Sequence record: MW883059
Reading direction: 5' to 3' (one strand)
From: Escherichia phage vB_EcoM_SYGD1
Length of the DNA stretch: 64,000 nucleotides
Shown here: piece after piece, positions 2,451 to 60,802 of the stretch
How positions within the stretch are numbered: position 1 is the stretch's first letter
Layout: each line of letters starts with the position of its first letter
Position numbers and translations under genes: made by a program
Notes under the pieces: generated by a model
What the model saw: the letters and a program-made list of their open reading frames with translations, nothing else
The model's database searches: none
Told to the model about the DNA's origin: nothing

Positions 2451-4268
2451 ATGATTAAGAATGAAATTAAAATTCTGAGCGATATTGAACATATCAAAAA
2501 GCGTAGCGGCATGTACATTGGCTCTTCTGCTAATGAAATGCATGAGCGCTTTCTGTTTGGTAAATGGGAAAGTGTTCAGTATGTACCTGGTCTTGTTAAG
2601 CTTATTGATGAAATTATCGATAACTCAGTAGATGAAGGTATTCGTACTAAGTTTAAATTCGCAAATAAAATTAATGTTACTATTAAAAACAATCAAGTAA
2701 CAGTTGAAGATAACGGTCGCGGTATTCCACAAGCGATGGTTAAAACACCTACCGGTGAAGAAATTCCTGGTCCAGTTGCTGCATGGACTATTCCAAAAGC
2801 AGGTGGTAACTTCGGTGATGATAAAGAACGCGTCACTGGTGGTATGAACGGTGTTGGTTCTAGTTTAACTAACATTTTTTCTGTGATGTTTGTCGGTGAA
2901 ACTGGTGATGGTCAAAATAATATTGTAGTTCGTTGTTCAAACGGCATGGAAAATAAATCGTGGGAAGATATTCCTGGAAAATGGAAAGGAACTCGCGTTA
3001 CTTTCATTCCTGATTTTATGTCATTTGAAACTAATGAGCTATCTCAAGTTTATCTTGACATTACACTAGATCGTCTCCAGACACTTGCAGTAGTTTATCC
3101 TGATATTCAATTTACCTTTAATGGTAAAAAGGTTCAGGGTAATTTTAAGAAATATGCACGCCAATATGATGAACATGCTATCGTTCAAGAACAAGAAAAC
3201 TGTTCTATCGCGGTTGGTCGTTCACCGGATGGTTTTCGTCAATTAACGTACGTCAATAACATTCATACTAAGAATGGTGGCCATCATATTGACTGCGTTA
3301 TGGATGATATTTGTGAAGACCTTATTCCGCAAATCAAACGTAAATTCAAAATTGATGTAACTAAAGCACGTGTTAAAGAATGTTTGACTATCGTTATGTT
3401 TGTTCGTGATATGAAAAACATGCGATTTGATTCTCAAACTAAAGAGCGTTTGACTTCTCCATTTGGTGAAATCCGTAGTCATATTCAACTTGATGCTAAA
3501 AAGATTTCACGTGCTATTTTAAATAATGAAGCAATTTTAATGCCAATTATTGAAGCTGCCTTGGCTCGTAAATTGGCGGCAGAAAAAGCAGCAGAAACTA
3601 AAGCAGCTAAAAAGGCTTCTAAAGCTAAGGTTCATAAACATATTAAAGCGAATCTTTGCGGTAAAGATGCTGACACTACTCTTTTCTTGACTGAGGGTGA
3701 TTCTGCTATCGGATATCTTATTGATGTTCGTGATAAAGAACTTCATGGTGGTTATCCATTGCGTGGTAAAGTTCTTAACAGTTGGGGTATGTCATATGCT
3801 GATATGCTTAAAAACAAAGAACTGTTTGATATTTGCGCAATCACTGGATTGGTTCTTGGTGAAAAAGCTGAAAACTTGAATTATCATAATATTGCTATTA
3901 TGACTGATGCTGACCATGATGGTCTAGGAAGCATTTATCCTTCTCTGCTAGGATTTTTTAGTAATTGGCCAGAACTGTTTGAACAAGGAAGAATTCGCTT
4001 TGTCAAAACTCCTGTAATCATCGCTCAGGTCGGTAAAAAACAAGAATGGTTTTATACAGTCGCTGAATATGAGAGTGCCAAAGATGCTCTACCTAAACAT
4101 AACATCCGTTATATTAAGGGACTTGGCTCTTTGGAAAAATCTGAATATCGTGAGATGATTCAAAACCCAGTATATGATGTTGTTAAACTTCCTGAGAATT
4201 GGAAAGAGCTTTTTGAAATGCTCATGGGAGATAATGCTGACCTTCGTAAAGAATGGATGAGCCAATAG
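2451..4268 (+). CDS. 39: DNA topoisomerase II large subunit, continuous 39+60 form (605 aa)
   Basis: N-terminus MIKNEIKILSDIEHIKKRSGMYIGSS; GHKL ATPase/toprim motifs; single ORF with no gene 60 split, mobA or bypass gap. Confidence 0.92.
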   Translation: MIKNEIKILSDIEHIKKRSGMYIGSSANEMHERFLFGKWESVQYVPGLVKLIDEIIDNSVDEGIRTKFKFANKINVTIKNNQVTVEDNGRGIPQAMVKTPTGEEIPGPVAAWTIPKAGGNFGDDKERVTGGMNGVGSSLTNIFSVMFVGETGDGQNNIVVRCSNGMENKSWEDIPGKWKGTRVTFIPDFMSFETNELSQVYLDITLDRLQTLAVVYPDIQFTFNGKKVQGNFKKYARQYDEHAIVQEQENCSIAVGRSPDGFRQLTYVNNIHTKNGGHHIDCVMDDICEDLIPQIKRKFKIDVTKARVKECLTIVMFVRDMKNMRFDSQTKERLTSPFGEIRSHIQLDAKKISRAILNNEAILMPIIEAALARKLAAEKAAETKAAKKASKAKVHKHIKANLCGKDADTTLFLTEGDSAIGYLIDVRDKELHGGYPLRGKVLNSWGMSYADMLKNKELFDICAITGLVLGEKAENLNYHNIAIMTDADHDGLGSIYPSLLGFFSNWPELFEQGRIRFVKTPVIIAQVGKKQEWFYTVAEYESAKDALPKHNIRYIKGLGSLEKSEYREMIQNPVYDVVKLPENWKELFEMLMGDNADLRKEWMSQ

Positions 4269-4297
4269 TTTACTTTACCACAAGGATGTGGTATAAT
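4268..4297 (+). promoter_or_regulatory. T4 early-type promoter (GTTTAC -35, TGTGGTATAAT -10)
   Basis: GTTTAC at 4268-4273, TATAAT at 4292-4297. Confidence 0.6.
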
Positions 4298-8745: not shown

Positions 8746-8762
8746 AAAATTTCACAAAACAG

Positions 8763-8791
8763 TTTACATACCACAAGGACTGTGGTACTAT
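8763..8791 (+). promoter_or_regulatory. T4 early-type promoter
   Basis: A/T-rich UP region, GTTTAC 8763-8768, 17-nt spacer, TGTGGTACTAT. Confidence 0.6.
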
Positions 8792-8825
8792 ACAACTATC
8801 AACTGATGCGGATTTGGAGAATAAA

Positions 8826-9032
8826 ATGTTTACTACAGCTGAATTAAAACGAGCAAAAGCTAAGAAAGGGCAAGGAAAATATAAAGCTGAATTAGTTAAA
8901 GAACTTCAGTTTGCTGAGGCTGAATTGAATTCAATGATTATTCAAAATGCTCCAGAAACTGAAATTGCTCTTAAACGTATTGTGAATAAGTGTCTTCGTG
9001 ATGCAATCGTCGATCTTTTAGCGGATTATTGA
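8826..9032 (+). CDS. hypothetical small protein 68 aa
   Basis: ATG after GGAGAATAAA Shine-Dalgarno. Confidence 0.5.
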   Translation: MFTTAELKRAKAKKGQGKYKAELVKELQFAEAELNSMIIQNAPETEIALKRIVNKCLRDAIVDLLADY

Positions 9033-9301
9033 GTAAAATGAAATTTAAATTTTATTACGCTAAACATAAAATAACTGATGAGTTTGTGTCAGTTGAATAT
9101 TCTAGCGATGATGAAGGTATGATTTATACTCGCTTGGGACTATCGCACTGGGAGTCTGACACGCCTTATTTTTCAACTCTCGAAGAAATTACACGCTTAG
9201 TTAATGGTCATATGAATGATCACTGGGATGTAATTCTTTCAGATAGTCTTAAAGCGGCTATTAATAGTAATGAAATGAAAATCGCTGGGATTGAACTATG
9301 A
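9029..9301 (+). CDS. hypothetical protein 90 aa
   Basis: ORF with ATGA overlap to upstream gene. Confidence 0.5.
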   Translation: MSKMKFKFYYAKHKITDEFVSVEYSSDDEGMIYTRLGLSHWESDTPYFSTLEEITRLVNGHMNDHWDVILSDSLKAAINSNEMKIAGIEL

Positions 9302-9380: not shown

Positions 9381-9479
9381 ATGAAAATTTTGAATTCTGT
9401 ACTTATTGCTTGTGCGTGGTGGGTTGCACAAGTTTCGGCAGTGGTGATTGGTATTCACATTTATTACGAATATTTTTAA
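9381..9479 (+). CDS. small hydrophobic peptide (32 aa)
   Basis: Short ORF encoding a single predicted transmembrane helix; below track cut-off. Confidence 0.3.
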   Translation: MKILNSVLIACAWWVAQVSAVVIGIHIYYEYF

Positions 9480-9486
9480 AAAAGTT

Positions 9487-9516
9487 GTTTACAAGACTGT
9501 TCCTCTGTGGTATTAT
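9487..9516 (+). promoter_or_regulatory. T4 early-type promoter inside a 9-bp inverted repeat
   Basis: GTTTAC 9487-9492, TATTAT 9511-9516; arms CTGTTCCTC 9497-9505 and GAGGAACAG 9533-9541. Confidence 0.5.
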
Positions 9517-9544
9517 TACCCTATCAACTACGGAGGAACAGAAA

Positions 9545-9658
9545 ATGAAAAAGATTGTTAAAGCTATATGGAATGTAGTTATAATACTAGTAGTTTTAAG
9601 TATATTCCCAATCGTTTTAATGATTGATGTATTAAACGCTTACTTTGGATTTATGTGA
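9545..9658 (+). CDS. small hydrophobic peptide (37 aa)
   Basis: GGAGG Shine-Dalgarno then ATG; single transmembrane helix. Confidence 0.35.
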   Translation: MKKIVKAIWNVVIILVVLSIFPIVLMIDVLNAYFGFM

Positions 9659-12557: not shown

Positions 12558-12588
12558 AGGGAGAGCCGAGGCTCTCCCTTTTTATTTT
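12558..12588 (+). terminator. rho-independent terminator
   Basis: AGGGAGAGC-CGA-GGCTCTCCCT hairpin followed by TTTTTATTTT. Confidence 0.8.
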
Positions 12589-12637: not shown

Positions 12638-12678
12638 ACAACTATCAACTACTGATACAGAATTACGGAGATTAGAAA

Positions 12679-29716: not shown

Positions 29717-29746
29717 GTTTACAGGCATAAAGCTTTATGGTACTAT
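29717..29746 (+). promoter_or_regulatory. T4 early-type promoter
   Basis: GTTTAC 29717-29722; TATGGTACTAT -10; shared ACAACTATC leader. Confidence 0.6.
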
Positions 29747-30061: not shown

Positions 30062-30427
30062 ATGTATATTGGTAGAAAATATGAACTTGTTCCAAGACTT
30101 ATTGATACATTTATTAATTATCGCCCGCGTTCTAATTCATCAATAGTTAAAATTATTCGAGATAATGGCGGATGGTTTGAAGTTAAAGAAGCTTTCTCTG
30201 CTGATGGATTTAGAGTAATAAAACACATTAAATGCGCAAATGGAAAGCATTTTTACTTCAACGTCTGCGAAGACGAATTTCATTGTTTCCGCGAGTATAA
30301 AGAACCAACTTCTGAAGAAGATGAAGTCGAAGACAAGGTTTCTGGCGTAACAAAAATTCACTGCATTGTAGATGAAAACAATGTAGATGAAATCATTGAA
30401 CTTTTGCGAAAAACTTTCAAAAAGTAG
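30062..30427 (+). CDS. hypothetical protein 121 aa
   Basis: ORF with Shine-Dalgarno. Confidence 0.5.
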   Translation: MYIGRKYELVPRLIDTFINYRPRSNSSIVKIIRDNGGWFEVKEAFSADGFRVIKHIKCANGKHFYFNVCEDEFHCFREYKEPTSEEDEVEDKVSGVTKIHCIVDENNVDEIIELLRKTFKK

Positions 30428-30456
30428 TTTACATCAGGGTAGTAGTGTGATACTAT
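30427..30456 (+). promoter_or_regulatory. T4 early-type promoter with inverted repeat around the -10
   Basis: GTTTAC 30427-30432; AGGGTAGTAGT...ACTATTACCCT imperfect inverted repeat. Confidence 0.5.
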
Positions 30457-30481
30457 TACCCTATCAACTAAGGAGAATAAA

Positions 30482-30724
30482 ATGAGATTACAACGCCAGA
30501 GCATCAAAGATTCAGAAGTTAGAGGTAAATGGTATTTTAATATCATCGGTAAAGATTCTGAACTTGTTGAAAAAGCTGAACTTCTTTTGCGTGATATGGG
30601 ATGGGAAGATGAATGCGATGGATGCCCTCTTTATGAGGATGGAGAAAGCGCAGGGTTTTGGATTTACCATTCTGATGTTGAACAGTTTAAAGCTGATTGG
30701 AAAATTGTGAAAAAGTCTGTTTAA
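30482..30724 (+). CDS. hypothetical protein 80 aa
   Basis: AAGGAGAATAAAATG start context. Confidence 0.5.
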   Translation: MRLQRQSIKDSEVRGKWYFNIIGKDSELVEKAELLLRDMGWEDECDGCPLYEDGESAGFWIYHSDVEQFKADWKIVKKSV

Positions 30725-39503: not shown

Positions 39504-39557
39504 GTTTACAAGTCCCTCGTGTTGTGTTATAGTAGACTTACTGACATAACATGAGGA
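39504..39557 (+). promoter_or_regulatory. early promoter cassette, copy A
   Basis: GTTTAC 39504-39509, TATAGT 39528-39533, GAGGA Shine-Dalgarno; 53/54 identical to 53108-53161. Confidence 0.6.
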
Positions 39558-39564
39558 CTTTATG

Positions 39565-42809: not shown

Positions 42810-42839
42810 GTTTACTTTATGGTAGAGTTGTGATATTAT
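42810..42839 (+). promoter_or_regulatory. T4 early-type promoter with 8-bp inverted repeat around the -10
   Basis: GTTTAC 42810-42815; TGGTAGAG 42820-42827 and CTCTACCA 42842-42849 flank TATTAT. Confidence 0.5.
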
Positions 42840-42869
42840 AGCTCTACCAAAACAAATGAGGAAAACAAA

Positions 42870-45777: not shown

Positions 45778-45808
45778 GAGGACTCCTTCGGGAGTCCTTT
45801 TTTATTTT
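45778..45808 (+). terminator. rho-independent terminator
   Basis: GAGGACTCC-TTCG-GGAGTCC followed by TTTTTTATTTT. Confidence 0.85.
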
Positions 45809-45827: not shown

Positions 45828-45860
45828 GTTTACAGTACGGTTCCTTTGTGATAGTATTAT
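45828..45860 (+). promoter_or_regulatory. T4 early-type promoter; downstream arm of a 7-bp inverted repeat overlaps the Shine-Dalgarno
   Basis: GTTTAC 45828-45833; TCCTTTG 45842-45848 pairs with CAAAGGA 45871-45877. Confidence 0.5.
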
Positions 45861-45884
45861 CTTACACAAACAAAGGAGAATAAA

Positions 45885-46217
45885 ATGAAAACGATTAATC
45901 TGAACGCTGCAGTTAAAACTAAATGCTTCAACGGTAAATATGATGAAACTATGTGGTTCTTAATGGCAGTTGAAGGTGATATTATTGAAGTAGAAACAAC
46001 AGAAGGTATGGGAACAGATTTCACCTTTACAATTCAAGTTCATAATTTCTTTACTGGTTGGATTTATGAATTGAATACAGTAATCGTTGGAAAAATTGAA
46101 CAAAATGAATTAGGCGAATGGTATTATGTTACAGCTCGCCAACGTGCCGAACACTTAATTGAGAAGATGAAAAAAGTTGGTAAACTTGACATGCAACATT
46201 GGAAAGTAGTAAAATAA
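45885..46217 (+). CDS. hypothetical protein 110 aa
   Basis: AAGGAGAATAAAATG start context. Confidence 0.5.
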   Translation: MKTINLNAAVKTKCFNGKYDETMWFLMAVEGDIIEVETTEGMGTDFTFTIQVHNFFTGWIYELNTVIVGKIEQNELGEWYYVTARQRAEHLIEKMKKVGKLDMQHWKVVK

Positions 46218-46219
46218 TT

Positions 46220-46249
46220 GTTTACTTTGGTACAGGATATGATATTATA
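46220..46249 (+). promoter_or_regulatory. T4 early-type promoter with perfect 8-bp inverted repeat around the -10
   Basis: GTTTAC 46220-46225; GGTACAGG 46229-46236 and CCTGTACC 46252-46259 flank TATTAT. Confidence 0.55.
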
Positions 46250-46284
46250 TACCTGTACCGCAATTAAACATCTTGGAGAATAAA

Positions 46285-52749: not shown

Positions 52750-53136
52750 ATGGAACTTATTACAGAATTATTTGACGGCGCTTCGGCGCCGGTTGTTAAC
52801 TTAAATCCTAAGCATAAAATACCTCAAATTTTTGCTATTCAAGCAGGTGAAGAAAGCGTGCTTCCTGGATTTAGATTTTGTACATACACCTCTGGCGGTG
52901 ATACAAATAAAAACGTTAAGCCAGGCGATAAAATGATGCATATCGTAATGATAGGTGTTAATGAGAAACTATCATTAGTTAAACTTAAAAACTTGGGTGG
53001 AAATCCAATTGGTGTCATTAATGCGGTTTTTGATACTGCTCTTCAAACAATGAAACAGTATAAAATCGACGCATGCCTATTACGCGTACTAAAAAGTTCA
53101 AAATGTAGTTTACAAGTCCCTCGTGTTGTGTTATAG
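52750..53136 (+). CDS. truncated paralog of the Alt N-terminal domain (128 aa)
   Basis: Residues 1-116 align with the Alt N-terminus; last 8 codons are encoded by the promoter cassette. Confidence 0.6.
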   Translation: MELITELFDGASAPVVNLNPKHKIPQIFAIQAGEESVLPGFRFCTYTSGGDTNKNVKPGDKMMHIVMIGVNEKLSLVKLKNLGGNPIGVINAVFDTALQTMKQYKIDACLLRVLKSSKCSLQVPRVVL

Positions 53137-53161
53137 TAGATTTACTGACATAACATGAGGA
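53108..53161 (+). promoter_or_regulatory. early promoter cassette, copy B
   Basis: 53/54 nt identical to 39504-39557. Confidence 0.6.
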
Positions 53162-53168
53162 ACATAAA

Positions 53169-53459
53169 ATGAAATCTTCTTTGCGCTTTTTAGGTCAAGA
53201 ACTCGTAGTTGAAGGCGTTATTCCTGCTGATAACGCTTTTAATGAAGCTGTTTACGATGAATTTATCAAAATTTTTGGAACAGATAAAAAGTTCGGAATT
53301 TTTCCTTCTGAAAATTTTTCAAAGCCAGAACAGACTGAAAGCATTTTCCAAGGTGTAGTAACAGGTAAATTTGAGTCAGAAGCTCCGGTAAAAATTGAAG
53401 TTTATATTGAAGACAGTTTAGTTGCTTCAGTTGCTGCTTTTATTTCATTCCGTAAATAA
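53169..53459 (+). CDS. hypothetical protein 96 aa
   Basis: ORF downstream of cassette B, followed by bidirectional hairpin. Confidence 0.5.
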   Translation: MKSSLRFLGQELVVEGVIPADNAFNEAVYDEFIKIFGTDKKFGIFPSENFSKPEQTESIFQGVVTGKFESEAPVKIEVYIEDSLVASVAAFISFRK

Positions 53460-53462
53460 AAA

Positions 53463-53488
53463 TATGGGGACCTTTCGGTCCCCATTGT
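53463..53488. terminator. bidirectional hairpin terminator between convergent early and late units
   Basis: GGGGACC-TTTC-GGTCCCC; U-rich flank on the minus-strand side. Confidence 0.65.
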
Positions 53489-59727: not shown

Positions 59728-59744
59728 AGATGCTCCTTTTATTC

Positions 59745-59752
59745 TATTTATA
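59745..59752 (-). promoter_or_regulatory. T4 late promoter TATAAATA for gene 51
   Basis: TATTTATA on plus strand 18 nt from gene 51 start. Confidence 0.6.
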
Positions 59753-59756
59753 AATA
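59749..59756 (+). promoter_or_regulatory. T4 late promoter TATAAATA for genes 26/25
   Basis: TATAAATA on plus strand upstream of gene 26; overlaps the opposite-strand late promoter. Confidence 0.6.
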
Positions 59757-59777
59757 TGATAAATAAAGGAGCTAAAT

Positions 59778-60404
59778 ATGTATGAATACAAATTTGACGT
59801 GAGAGTTGGTTCTAAAATAATCAACTGTCGTGCATTTACTCTTAAAGAATATCTAGAACTTATTACTGCTAAAAAGAACGGTTCAGTCGAAGAAATTGTT
59901 AAAAAGCTAATTAAAGACTGTACAAACGCAAAAGATTTAAACCGCCAAGAATCAGAACTATTGTTGATTCATTTATGGGCGCATTCTCTTGGAGAAGTTA
60001 ATCATGAAAACTCCTGGAAGTGCACCTGTGGAACTGAAATACCAACCCATATAAATCTATTACATACACAAATAGATGCACCAGAAGACCTCTGGTATAC
60101 ACTGGGTGACATTAAAATTAAGTTCCATTACCCTAAAATTTTTGATGATAAAAATATAGCCCACATGATAGTATCGTGTATAGAAACGATTCATGCTAAC
60201 GGGGAAAGCATTCCAATTGAAGACTTAAATGAAAAAGAGTTGGAAGATTTATATTCTATCATCACAGAGTCAGATATTGTAGCTATAAAAGATATGCTTT
60301 TAAAGCCTACTGTTTATTTGGCTGTTCCAATTAAGTGTCCAGAGTGTGGAAAAACTCACGCTCATGTAATAAGAGGACTCAAAGAATTCTTTGAGCTATT
60401 GTAA
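59778..60404 (+). CDS. 26: baseplate hub subunit gp26 (208 aa)
   Basis: Exact T4 length; synteny. Confidence 0.85.
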
Positions 60405-60802
60405 TGGCAAATATTAATAAGCTTTATTCTGACATTGACCCAGAAATGAAAATGGATTGGGACAAAGATGTTTCTAGATCTCTTGGATTAAGGTCAATTA
60501 AAAATAGCCTTTTGGGAATTATCACAACCAGAAAAGGGTCGAGACCGTTTGACCCAGAATTTGGATGCGATTTATCTGATCAACTTTTTGAGAATATGAC
60601 TCCTCTTACTGCTGATACAGTTGAGCGTAACATCGAAAGCGCAGTAAGAAACTACGAGCCGCGTATTGATAAATTAGCAGTTAATGTAATACCAGTTTAT
60701 GATGATTATACTCTGATAGTAGAAATACGCTTTTCGGTCATCGATAACCCTGATGATATTGAGCAGATAAAACTGCAACTGGCTTCCAGTAATAGAGTAT
60801 AA
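60404..60802 (+). CDS. 25: baseplate wedge subunit gp25 (132 aa)
   Basis: Exact T4 length; synteny. Confidence 0.88.
   Translation: MANINKLYSDIDPEMKMDWDKDVSRSLGLRSIKNSLLGIITTRKGSRPFDPEFGCDLSDQLFENMTPLTADTVERNIESAVRNYEPRIDKLAVNVIPVYDDYTLIVEIRFSVIDNPDDIEQIKLQLASSNRV

Follow-up and report, generated by a model that had tools for sequence, protein, structure and literature searches.

Hairpins nested in T4-type early promoters of Escherichia phage vB_EcoM_SYGD1 and their predicted effect on Shine-Dalgarno accessibility

Introduction

Studies of timed gene expression in virulent phages take T4 as their reference system, and the abrupt stop of early protein synthesis in T4 is still incompletely understood (PMC3014915, PMC2988021). 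The present analysis concerns a 64,000-nucleotide stretch of the Tequatrovirus Escherichia phage vB_EcoM_SYGD1 (sequence record MW883059; the whole stretch is called the window below). The window is 92-97% identical to T4 along most of its length, and its plus strand corresponds to the T4 minus strand, the strand of early transcription. Inverted repeats are nested in several of its early promoters; at four genes (ndd.4, 30.8, alc and alt.-3) the downstream arm lies on the Shine-Dalgarno (SD) sequence itself.

Sequestration of the ribosome-binding site (RBS) has been described in T4. The long transcript of gene e is translated approximately 100-fold less, and I-TevI behaves alike (PMC3014915, PMC2988022). 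Reviews list e, soc, 49, I-TevI, segB and 25/26 as RBS-sequestered genes and describe every one of them as a late gene (PMC2988022). The four hairpins of the window share with this late-gene silencing (e, soc, 49, I-TevI/II/III, segB, 25/26) an SD or AUG that is buried in RNA started upstream and a promoter inside the structure. The predicted energetics match as well, with genes e and 26 scoring alongside the early cases in SD scans. However, the embedded promoter here is a sigma-70 early promoter (GTTTAC-N17-TAnnnT) and theirs is a gp55 late promoter (TATAAATA); here, too, the -35/-10 spacer itself serves as the 5' arm. The logic would also be inverted, with expression confined to the first minutes here and delayed to late times there. 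Early-promoter silencing would be a variant of the T4 late-gene mechanism and not the same case. The first-pass annotation of this DNA had matched its hairpins to T4 read-through silencing; the geometry of helix and promoter bears this out, but the T4 precedents all have late promoters. No description of an early-promoter version of RBS sequestration was found in the literature searched, which did not include most of the T4 work of the 1980s-90s or the 2003 genome review, where an earlier mention is possible. The T4 DksA RNA-seq and the time-resolved proteome/transcriptome papers gave nothing specific on the regulation of ndd.4, 30.8, alt.-3 or alc.

The second related system is that of the promoter-early stem-loop (PeSL) cassettes (Arbiol 2010; Comeau 2014). 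The modules described here have in common with them a strong sigma-70-type early promoter with A/T-rich sequence upstream, a stem-loop beside or over it, then an SD and a start codon, as well as an intergenic position, genomic repetition and association with indels; the ndd.4/ndd.5 region is a published PeSL example (PMC4122927). The five published subclasses place the stem-loop 5' of the -35, on the -35, between the boxes, on the -10 or just before the start, and none pairs the SD (PMC2839356). In the T4/PST group the stem-loop is placed upstream of the promoter (PMC4122927). It has been read as a terminator or attenuator and as a recombination site, not as a translational switch (PMC2839356, PMC4122927). 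The earlier comparison with promoter stem-loop modules was right about the make-up of the cassettes, but SD pairing is absent from the published subclasses.

Two other elements are alike in part. Intrinsic terminators are also intergenic hairpins containing G+C; here there is no T tract, the loops are long and a promoter lies inside. RegB sites share GGAG and A-rich sequence with the ndd.4 and 30.8 SDs; here the feature is a helix with an embedded promoter rather than a cleavage motif.

SD-pairing hairpins at four early promoters

Five inverted repeats had been claimed in the window; all were present at the positions given, each on an early promoter. When mapped via the T4 annotation, the promoters were those of ndd.4 (9487), 30.8 (45828), 30.7 (46220), cd.2 (42810) and frd.1 (30427). 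Each repeat overlies a promoter of the T4 early type: A/T-rich sequence upstream, followed by GTTTAC, 16-17 nt, TGn and TAnnnT. The pattern GTTTAC...TAnnnT was found 17 times in the window by pattern scan, against 3.75 expected. The sole promoter annotation in the T4 records NC_000866 and AF158101 is a note on Pe133295; GenBank OL960580 (Escherichia phage SA21RB) labels the site homologous to the ndd.4 promoter a T4-type early promoter. All five repeats folded better as RNA than shuffled controls, a comparison named beforehand as one on which they could fail. The z values against 200 dinucleotide shuffles were respectively -4.2, -3.9, -4.4, -3.8 and -2.9 for ndd.4, 30.8, 30.7, cd.2 and frd.1, and 0, 0, 0, 0 and 2 of the 200 shuffles folded equally well.

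The downstream arm had been said to overlap GGAG(G) at 9497-9541 and 45842-45877, and the SD lies inside the 3' arm at both sites. Two further hairpins, at alc and alt.-3, which the first-pass annotation had not listed, are of the same layout (class B), with the 5' arm placed within the promoter spacer, ahead of the -10, and the 3' arm on the SD itself. The features of these four sites are:

9470-9486, plus strand: UP-like A/T-rich tract of ndd.4, seen in the sequence
9487-9516, plus strand: ndd.4 early promoter, with -35 GTTTAC at 9487-9492, TGn at 9508-9510, -10 TATTAT at 9511-9516 and predicted start at about 9523
9497-9511, plus strand: ndd.4 5' arm CTGTTCCTCTGTGGT, within the promoter spacer and holding the anti-SD TTCCTC
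9527-9541, plus strand: ndd.4 3' arm ACTACGGAGGAACAG, with SD GGAGG at 9532-9536; the arm ends about 4 nt 5' of the ATG at 9545
9545-9658, plus strand: ndd.4 open reading frame (ORF), 37 aa, a predicted small inner-membrane protein and the gene of the module
45778-45803, plus strand: intrinsic terminator after gene 30.9, just 5' of the 30.8 promoter (GGACTCC-TTCG-GGAGTCC and a T run)
45828-45857, plus strand: 30.8 early promoter, with -35 GTTTAC, -10 TAGTAT at 45852-45857 and predicted start at about 45864
45841-45849/45870-45878, plus strand: 30.8 hairpin TTCCTTTGT/ACAAAGGAG, with SD GGAG at 45875-45878 and ATG at 45885
39504-39559, plus strand: alc cassette, with -35 at 39504-39509, -10 TATAGT at 39528-39533, arms 39511-39528/39543-39559, SD GAGGA at 39553-39557 and ATG at 39562
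53108-53163, plus strand: alt.-3 cassette, with arms 53116-53132/53147-53163, SD GAGGA at 53157-53161 and ATG at 53169

The ndd.4 hairpin has 15 RNA pairs, two of them G.U, around the core CTGTTCCTC/GAGGAACAG; the SD-containing helices of the four sites are 9-17 bp long. Folding of read-through versus promoter-initiated leaders, the check proposed for these hairpins, separated the two RNAs at every SD-pairing site. The SD opening cost (the energy to free a 9-nt SD window) was 18.1 kcal/mol in read-through RNA and 0.9 in RNA from 9523 at ndd.4. The corresponding values were 10.6 and 0.4 kcal/mol at 30.8, 12.4 and 2.9 at alc, and 12.9 and 3.6 at alt.-3, giving ranges of 10.6-18.1 against 0.4-3.6 kcal/mol. 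A transcript from the embedded promoter would lack the 5' arm, since this arm lies in the spacer, upstream of the -10; the short promoter-initiated leaders alone were unstructured, with a minimum free energy (MFE) of 0.

The alc and alt.-3 cassettes (39504-39557 and 53108-53161) are copies of one 54-nt unit placed 13.6 kb apart. They differ by a single mismatch and run exactly from GTTTAC to GAGGA, and their flanks are unrelated (rnlA/alc versus alt.-2/alt.-3). The duplication is also present in T4; QL01 and RB69 hold other cassettes at the alt.-3 site. The terminator-then-promoter order before 30.8 is the layout described for T4/PST PeSLs (PMC4122927).

Homologues of Ndd.4 are so annotated in VR20, QL01, JS10 and PEi20. 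The annotated ndd.4 start in T4 is an ATG within the 3' arm (ACTATGGAGG; T4 166750-166764), where the window has ACG (window 9527-9547). Because the conserved start is the downstream ATG (window 9545), 8 nt 3' of GGAGG, the T4 annotation of ndd.4 is probably five codons too long.

Specificity of the pairing and controls within the window

When 12 promoter halves were combined with 12 leaders in a 12 x 12 swap, pairing across the start had a mean of -10.0 kcal/mol in cognate and -5.0 kcal/mol in non-cognate combinations (permutation p = 5e-5). When only the spacer was shuffled, with hexamers and leader fixed, the observed sequestration was reached in 0/300 shuffles at ndd.4 and in 2/300, 0/300 and 0/300 at the remaining three class B sites. 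The pairing is specific to the cognate promoter and leader and depends on the base order of the spacer, not on its composition; an artefact of composition was ruled out by the spacer shuffles.

SD accessibility was scanned over the 67 called plus-strand genes of at least 50 aa, a size cut below which ndd.4 (37 aa) falls. A cost above 8 kcal/mol was found only at alt.-3, alc, 30.8, gene 26 and gene 25. With ndd.4 included, a high cost was seen in 4 of 12 promoter-linked genes and 2 of 56 others (p = 0.007). Genes 26 and 25, already known as late-type cases, act as positive controls within the scan. The initiation region of gene 25 is structured at about 60340-60406, and the hairpin of gene 26 is placed as follows:

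59732-59772, plus strand: gene 26 late-type hairpin, arms GCTCCTTTTATT/AATAAAGGAGC, with the late promoter TATAAATA at 59749-59756 in the loop

The stems hold G.U pairs, which are A-C mismatches on the other strand, and the sense RNA was more stable than the antisense RNA in 14/14 cases. These two observations point to a function in the sense read-through transcript, as modelled here. A DNA-level palindrome or an antisense function was rejected on the greater stability of sense RNA in all 14.

Hairpins that leave the SD free

The repeats at 46229-46259, 42820-42849 and 30437-30461 had been described as enclosing the -10. They do so, and the SD is untouched there. In this layout (class A: 30.7, cd.2 and frd.1) the 3' arm lies just after the -10, over the predicted start:

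46220-46270, plus strand: 30.7 promoter and hairpin, GGTACAGG at 46229-46236 and CCTGTACC at 46252-46259 around the -10; SD at about 46275 free (0.4 vs 0.8 kcal/mol)
42810-42852, plus strand: cd.2 promoter (T4 Pe133295) and hairpin, arms 42817-42834/42835-42852 with core GGTAGAG/CTCTACC; -10 enclosed, SD free
30427-30462, plus strand: frd.1 promoter and hairpin, arms 30436-30446/30452-30462; -10 enclosed, SD free

The SD opening cost of class A was 0.4-0.9 kcal/mol in read-through RNA and 0.4-0.8 kcal/mol in the own transcript, so that the SD is free in both. The 30.7 stem was unchanged in five phages (including T4, VR20, QL01 and RB69) with varying flanks, and the frd.1 stem was kept with a G-C to C-G exchange in QL01 and an extra pair in RB69.

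In class C the entire hairpin lies within the spacer. This layout was found at the promoters at 4268, 8762 and 29717, with SD costs of 0.9-2.1 kcal/mol in read-through RNA and 0.3-2.5 kcal/mol in the own transcript, a small effect on the SD. Among these promoters (4268-4297, 8762-8791 and 29717-29746) the hairpin is CCACA-AGGA-TGTGG twice and the palindrome CATAAAGCTTTATG once. The spacer holds the 5' arm in all three classes, so that each hairpin can form only in RNA begun farther upstream. The class C spacer CCACAAGGATGTGG recurs at the alt.-3 promoter of QL01.

Conservation across phage genera

The comparison covered the homologous 50 kb in each of T4, VR20 (Gaprivervirus), QL01 (Dhakavirus) and RB69 (Mosigvirus), with nine further loci, including Kanagawavirus, added for ndd.4. 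An IMG/VR scan with gp30.8 gave only 9 loci, and GenBank phage records were used instead.

Of 12 phages belonging to Tequatrovirus, Gaprivervirus, Dhakavirus and Kanagawavirus, 11 had the ndd.4 SD sequestered at 9-19 kcal/mol, against 0.8-2.6 kcal/mol in their own transcripts. The arms themselves differ between genera: CTGTTCCTCTGTGGT/ACTACGGAGGAACAG in Tequatrovirus, CATCTCCGGTGG/CTACTGGAGATG in Gaprivervirus and CATCTCCATTAG/CTAATGGAGATG in Dhakavirus, where ESCO10 and ABTNLsp5 show single changes to U.G. In Kanagawavirus the -35 and the AUG are part of the helix as well. Three positions of the stem differ between T4 and the window, and all three changes preserve the pair. In an 11-sequence alignment 86% of cells paired, a value lowered by three partly misaligned Kanagawavirus rows, compared with 33-57% when the partners were slid. 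Four pairs were altered on both sides, and the covariation score was 0.226 against 0.156 in shuffled alignments (0/500). A joint alignment of Tequatrovirus with the other genera was left out of the pair counting because the arms lie at shifted positions and its columns are not homologous.

At 30.8, four genera have four different arm pairs, all including the SD; outside the window they are TCCAGTG/CACTGGA in VR20, TCTCCGGT/ACTGGAGA in QL01 and TCTCCTG/CCGGAGA in RB69. Across the genera compared, ndd.4 and 30.8 remain class B, and 30.7 and frd.1 remain class A. The alc hairpin is class B in Tequatrovirus and Dhakavirus, and that of alt.-3 in Tequatrovirus only.

Genome-wide census in a Tequatrovirus

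A census was made in the complete, unannotated genome of Tequatrovirus BCH953P2, which has 36 units of early promoter, SD and ATG, all on one strand. Ten of the 36 had SD costs of 10-19 kcal/mol in read-through RNA and at most 3.0 kcal/mol in the own transcript; the next highest read-through value was 6.3. Four of the ten are the window genes, three have no known function, and the others encode the RegB endoribonuclease, endonuclease V (DenV) and a Mod-type ADP-ribosyltransferase. Six of them lie outside the region of the window:

126398, 135865, 138970, 86419, 81219 and 91477 in BCH953P2, minus strand: further SD-pairing early modules

The module at 126398, before a gene of unknown function, repeats the ndd.4-type cassette as a second copy. 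Of the 221 genes called, 12 reached a cost of 10 kcal/mol or more, and every one of these has an embedded promoter, early in nine cases and late in three; high SD cost was linked to early promoters (Fisher p = 1.5e-6). One of the late cases is the textbook one, gene e, which encodes a lysozyme of 164 aa and has two late promoters.

Proposed mechanism

Each SD-pairing module would be an early expression cassette complete in itself, with a promoter spacer that also serves as an anti-SD sequence. A polymerase arriving from an upstream promoter would transcribe the spacer and, 20-45 nt later, the SD, and the local 9-17 bp hairpin would bury the SD. The 30S subunits would then be unable to start on ndd.4, 30.8, alc and alt.-3. 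RNA begun at the embedded promoter would start about 7 nt past the -10, in the loop, and would have no 5' arm, an open SD and a leader of 21-25 nt. Translation would be tied to the gene's own immediate-early promoter and would stop when early promoters shut off minutes into infection, despite delayed-early or middle read-through RNA. Work by de Smit and van Duin on SD helices reportedly implies that 10-18 kcal/mol would cut initiation by orders of magnitude. As a secondary effect, untranslated read-through RNA might be lost in a Rho-dependent manner, and the hairpins would act as attenuators without being intrinsic terminators. Such a loss could, speculatively, reconcile silencing with the attenuator activity reported for PeSL stem-loops.

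We give a probability of roughly 0.6 to the reading that read-through RNA is translationally silenced at these genes and that translation comes only from the embedded immediate-early promoter. The first-pass annotation had proposed the same logic, with read-through RNA locked and the own transcript free, and the modelled geometry and opening costs, the cognate specificity and the compensatory changes agree with it. We infer the presence and amount of read-through RNA, as well as the effect on translation. Read-through into ndd.4, alc and alt.-3 is plausible since the plus-strand terminator scan found no terminator-like site from the 8762 promoter to ndd.4, nor just 5' of alc or alt.-3. More tentatively, and with the odds slightly against it, a quarter to a third of the Tevenvirinae early promoters could be "self-insulating" cassettes with a spacer-encoded anti-SD, whose genes (including regB, denV, a mod-type ADP-ribosyltransferase gene and alc) would depend for translation on their own immediate-early promoter alone and be silenced on all read-through RNA.

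Several points weigh against the silencing of read-through RNA. The predicted starts were set 7 nt after the -10 by assumption. A strong terminator stands 30 nt upstream of the 30.8 promoter, and because of it there may be little read-through RNA over 30.8 to silence. Only some 10 nt separate the rnlA stop codon from the alc 5' arm that follows it, and a ribosome terminating there could open the base of the alc helix. Conservation is incomplete: the ndd.4 SD of PEi20 is held at only 6.0 kcal/mol, the 30.8 pairing is weak in QL01 and RB69 (3.7 kcal/mol, or missing from the MFE structure), and RB69 at alc, as well as RB69 and QL01 at alt.-3, have a spacer-confined class C hairpin with a free SD. 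Part of the apparent conservation could be the spread of one cassette rather than independent selection, because several non-Tequatrovirus sites have GT(N)TACATCTCC in common. Finally, the 30.7, cd.2 and frd.1 hairpins are unexplained by SD silencing.

If read-through RNA is indeed silenced, the shut-off of early promoters would suffice to end synthesis of the cassette proteins, RegB not being needed. Several regulators (RegB, Alc and a Mod-type enzyme) would be under the control of spacer-SD hairpins. On the more tentative "self-insulating" reading, these hairpins would form a widespread and so far undescribed layer of temporal control, outnumbering the classical late-gene hairpins by about 3 to 1 and contributing to the rapid shut-off of early protein synthesis. 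They would also supply a rationale for PeSL stem-loops, with the expression of an inserted gene made independent of its genomic context, and database annotations that name them terminators would be corrected. The ndd.4 module makes the prediction directly testable: promoter and helix can be mutated independently because the -10 sits in the loop.

Alternative explanations

It is unlikely that the hairpins terminate or attenuate upstream transcription, in a PeSL-type role, with an incidental SD overlap. One PeSL stem-loop, in RB49/phi1, cut expression as much as the rrnB T1 terminator when set between a promoter and lacZ (PMC2839356), and OL960580 (SA21RB, positions 382-440 of the locus analysed) carries a "rho-independent terminator" called by WebGeSTer on the ndd.4 hairpin, overlapping the promoter. 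The -10-enclosing hairpins of 30.7, cd.2 and frd.1 also require some function independent of the SD. However, no promoter-nested hairpin has a T tract behind it, with A-rich tails found instead (e.g., GAACAGAAAATGAAAAAG), and the terminator scan called none of the nested hairpins yet found canonical terminators at 45778-45799, 12558-12579 and 53464-53485. Loops of 15-30 nt are atypical of intrinsic terminators, and at 30.8 a canonical terminator is already in place 30 nt upstream of the promoter. Termination also leaves unexplained that the 3' arm tracks the SD while both arms change between genera. Intrinsic termination was rejected for lack of a T tract, and the WebGeSTer call in OL960580 is probably a misread SD-pairing hairpin.

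The helices could instead govern the fate of the RNA, either by shielding the SD GGAG from RegB or other RNases in long transcripts or by stabilising or processing the RNA. RegB cuts GGAG in the SDs of early mRNAs, secondary structure protects the site, and 16 resistant T4 RNAs have their GGAG in stable structures (PMC3014915, PMC1702504), which Durand et al. noted but set aside (PMC1702504). GGAG is followed by A-rich sequence at ndd.4 (GGAGGAACAGAAAA) and 30.8 (GGAGAAUAAAA), and regB itself is under such a module in BCH953P2. Compared with the RegB consensus GGAGRAYARAA (PMC1702504), the motif was present at 30.8 (GGAGAATAAAA), approximate at ndd.4 (GGAGGAACAGA) and absent at alc and alt.-3. 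The last two are not RegB targets since their SD, GAGGA, has no GGAG, yet they are the strongest cassettes. A shielded SD would be untranslatable too, and protection would gain nothing unless the helix later opened. We consider a role in RNA fate rather improbable.

Cassette mobility is real; it is compatible with translational silencing and does not exclude it. At alc and alt.-3 the cassettes are near-identical 54-nt copies between unrelated flanks, and indels between the window and T4 end exactly at promoter/SD cassettes (5' of frd.1 and after the 8762 promoter). Comeau et al. placed the ndd.4/ndd.5 exchange between PeSLs (PMC4122927), and a short query around ndd.4 matched 2-4 places per genome. 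That the inverted repeats are simply by-products of PeSL-type mobility, serving recombination or having no role in expression, is improbable. Mobility accounts for the repetition and not for the complementarity, as pairing is kept though the arms differ between genera; the G.U pairs render the RNA structure specific to one strand, and the hairpin class of a gene tends to stay the same from genus to genus.

Chance complementarity in A/T-rich intergenic DNA, picked by eye, is a very improbable source even though short inverted repeats are common at 35% G+C and the examples were chosen after reading 64 kb: it was refuted by the shuffle, swap, scan and covariation controls (z of -3.8 to -4.4, swap p = 5e-5, spacer shuffles 0-2/300, scan p = 0.007 in the window and 1.5e-6 genome-wide, and compensatory changes).

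Additional observations on the cassettes

Several early promoters have the motif (C)CTATCAACTA after their -10 (window 9517-9531, 8792-8806, 12638-12660 and 30457-30471), and it was seen in other genera too. As an initial transcribed motif, it may be part of an extended early-promoter consensus or of the recombining cassette.

At window 8826-9301, after the 8762 promoter, about 440 bp with two ORFs (68 aa and about 87-90 aa) are missing from T4. The T4 junction AAATG|AAAATCGCT retains only a remnant mini-ORF (MKIAEIEL), and the indel begins at the SD/ATG of the cassette. Upstream of frd.1 (window 30463-30482; T4 146005-146142), T4 is about 72 bp longer; the extra DNA contains a hydrophobic ORF of 22 aa (MFAPYIMAAVMLVCLYLLIKAC) that is unannotated and has an SD of its own. 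In the window the promoter cassette is joined directly to the frd.1 SD, with the breakpoint in two similar SD regions.

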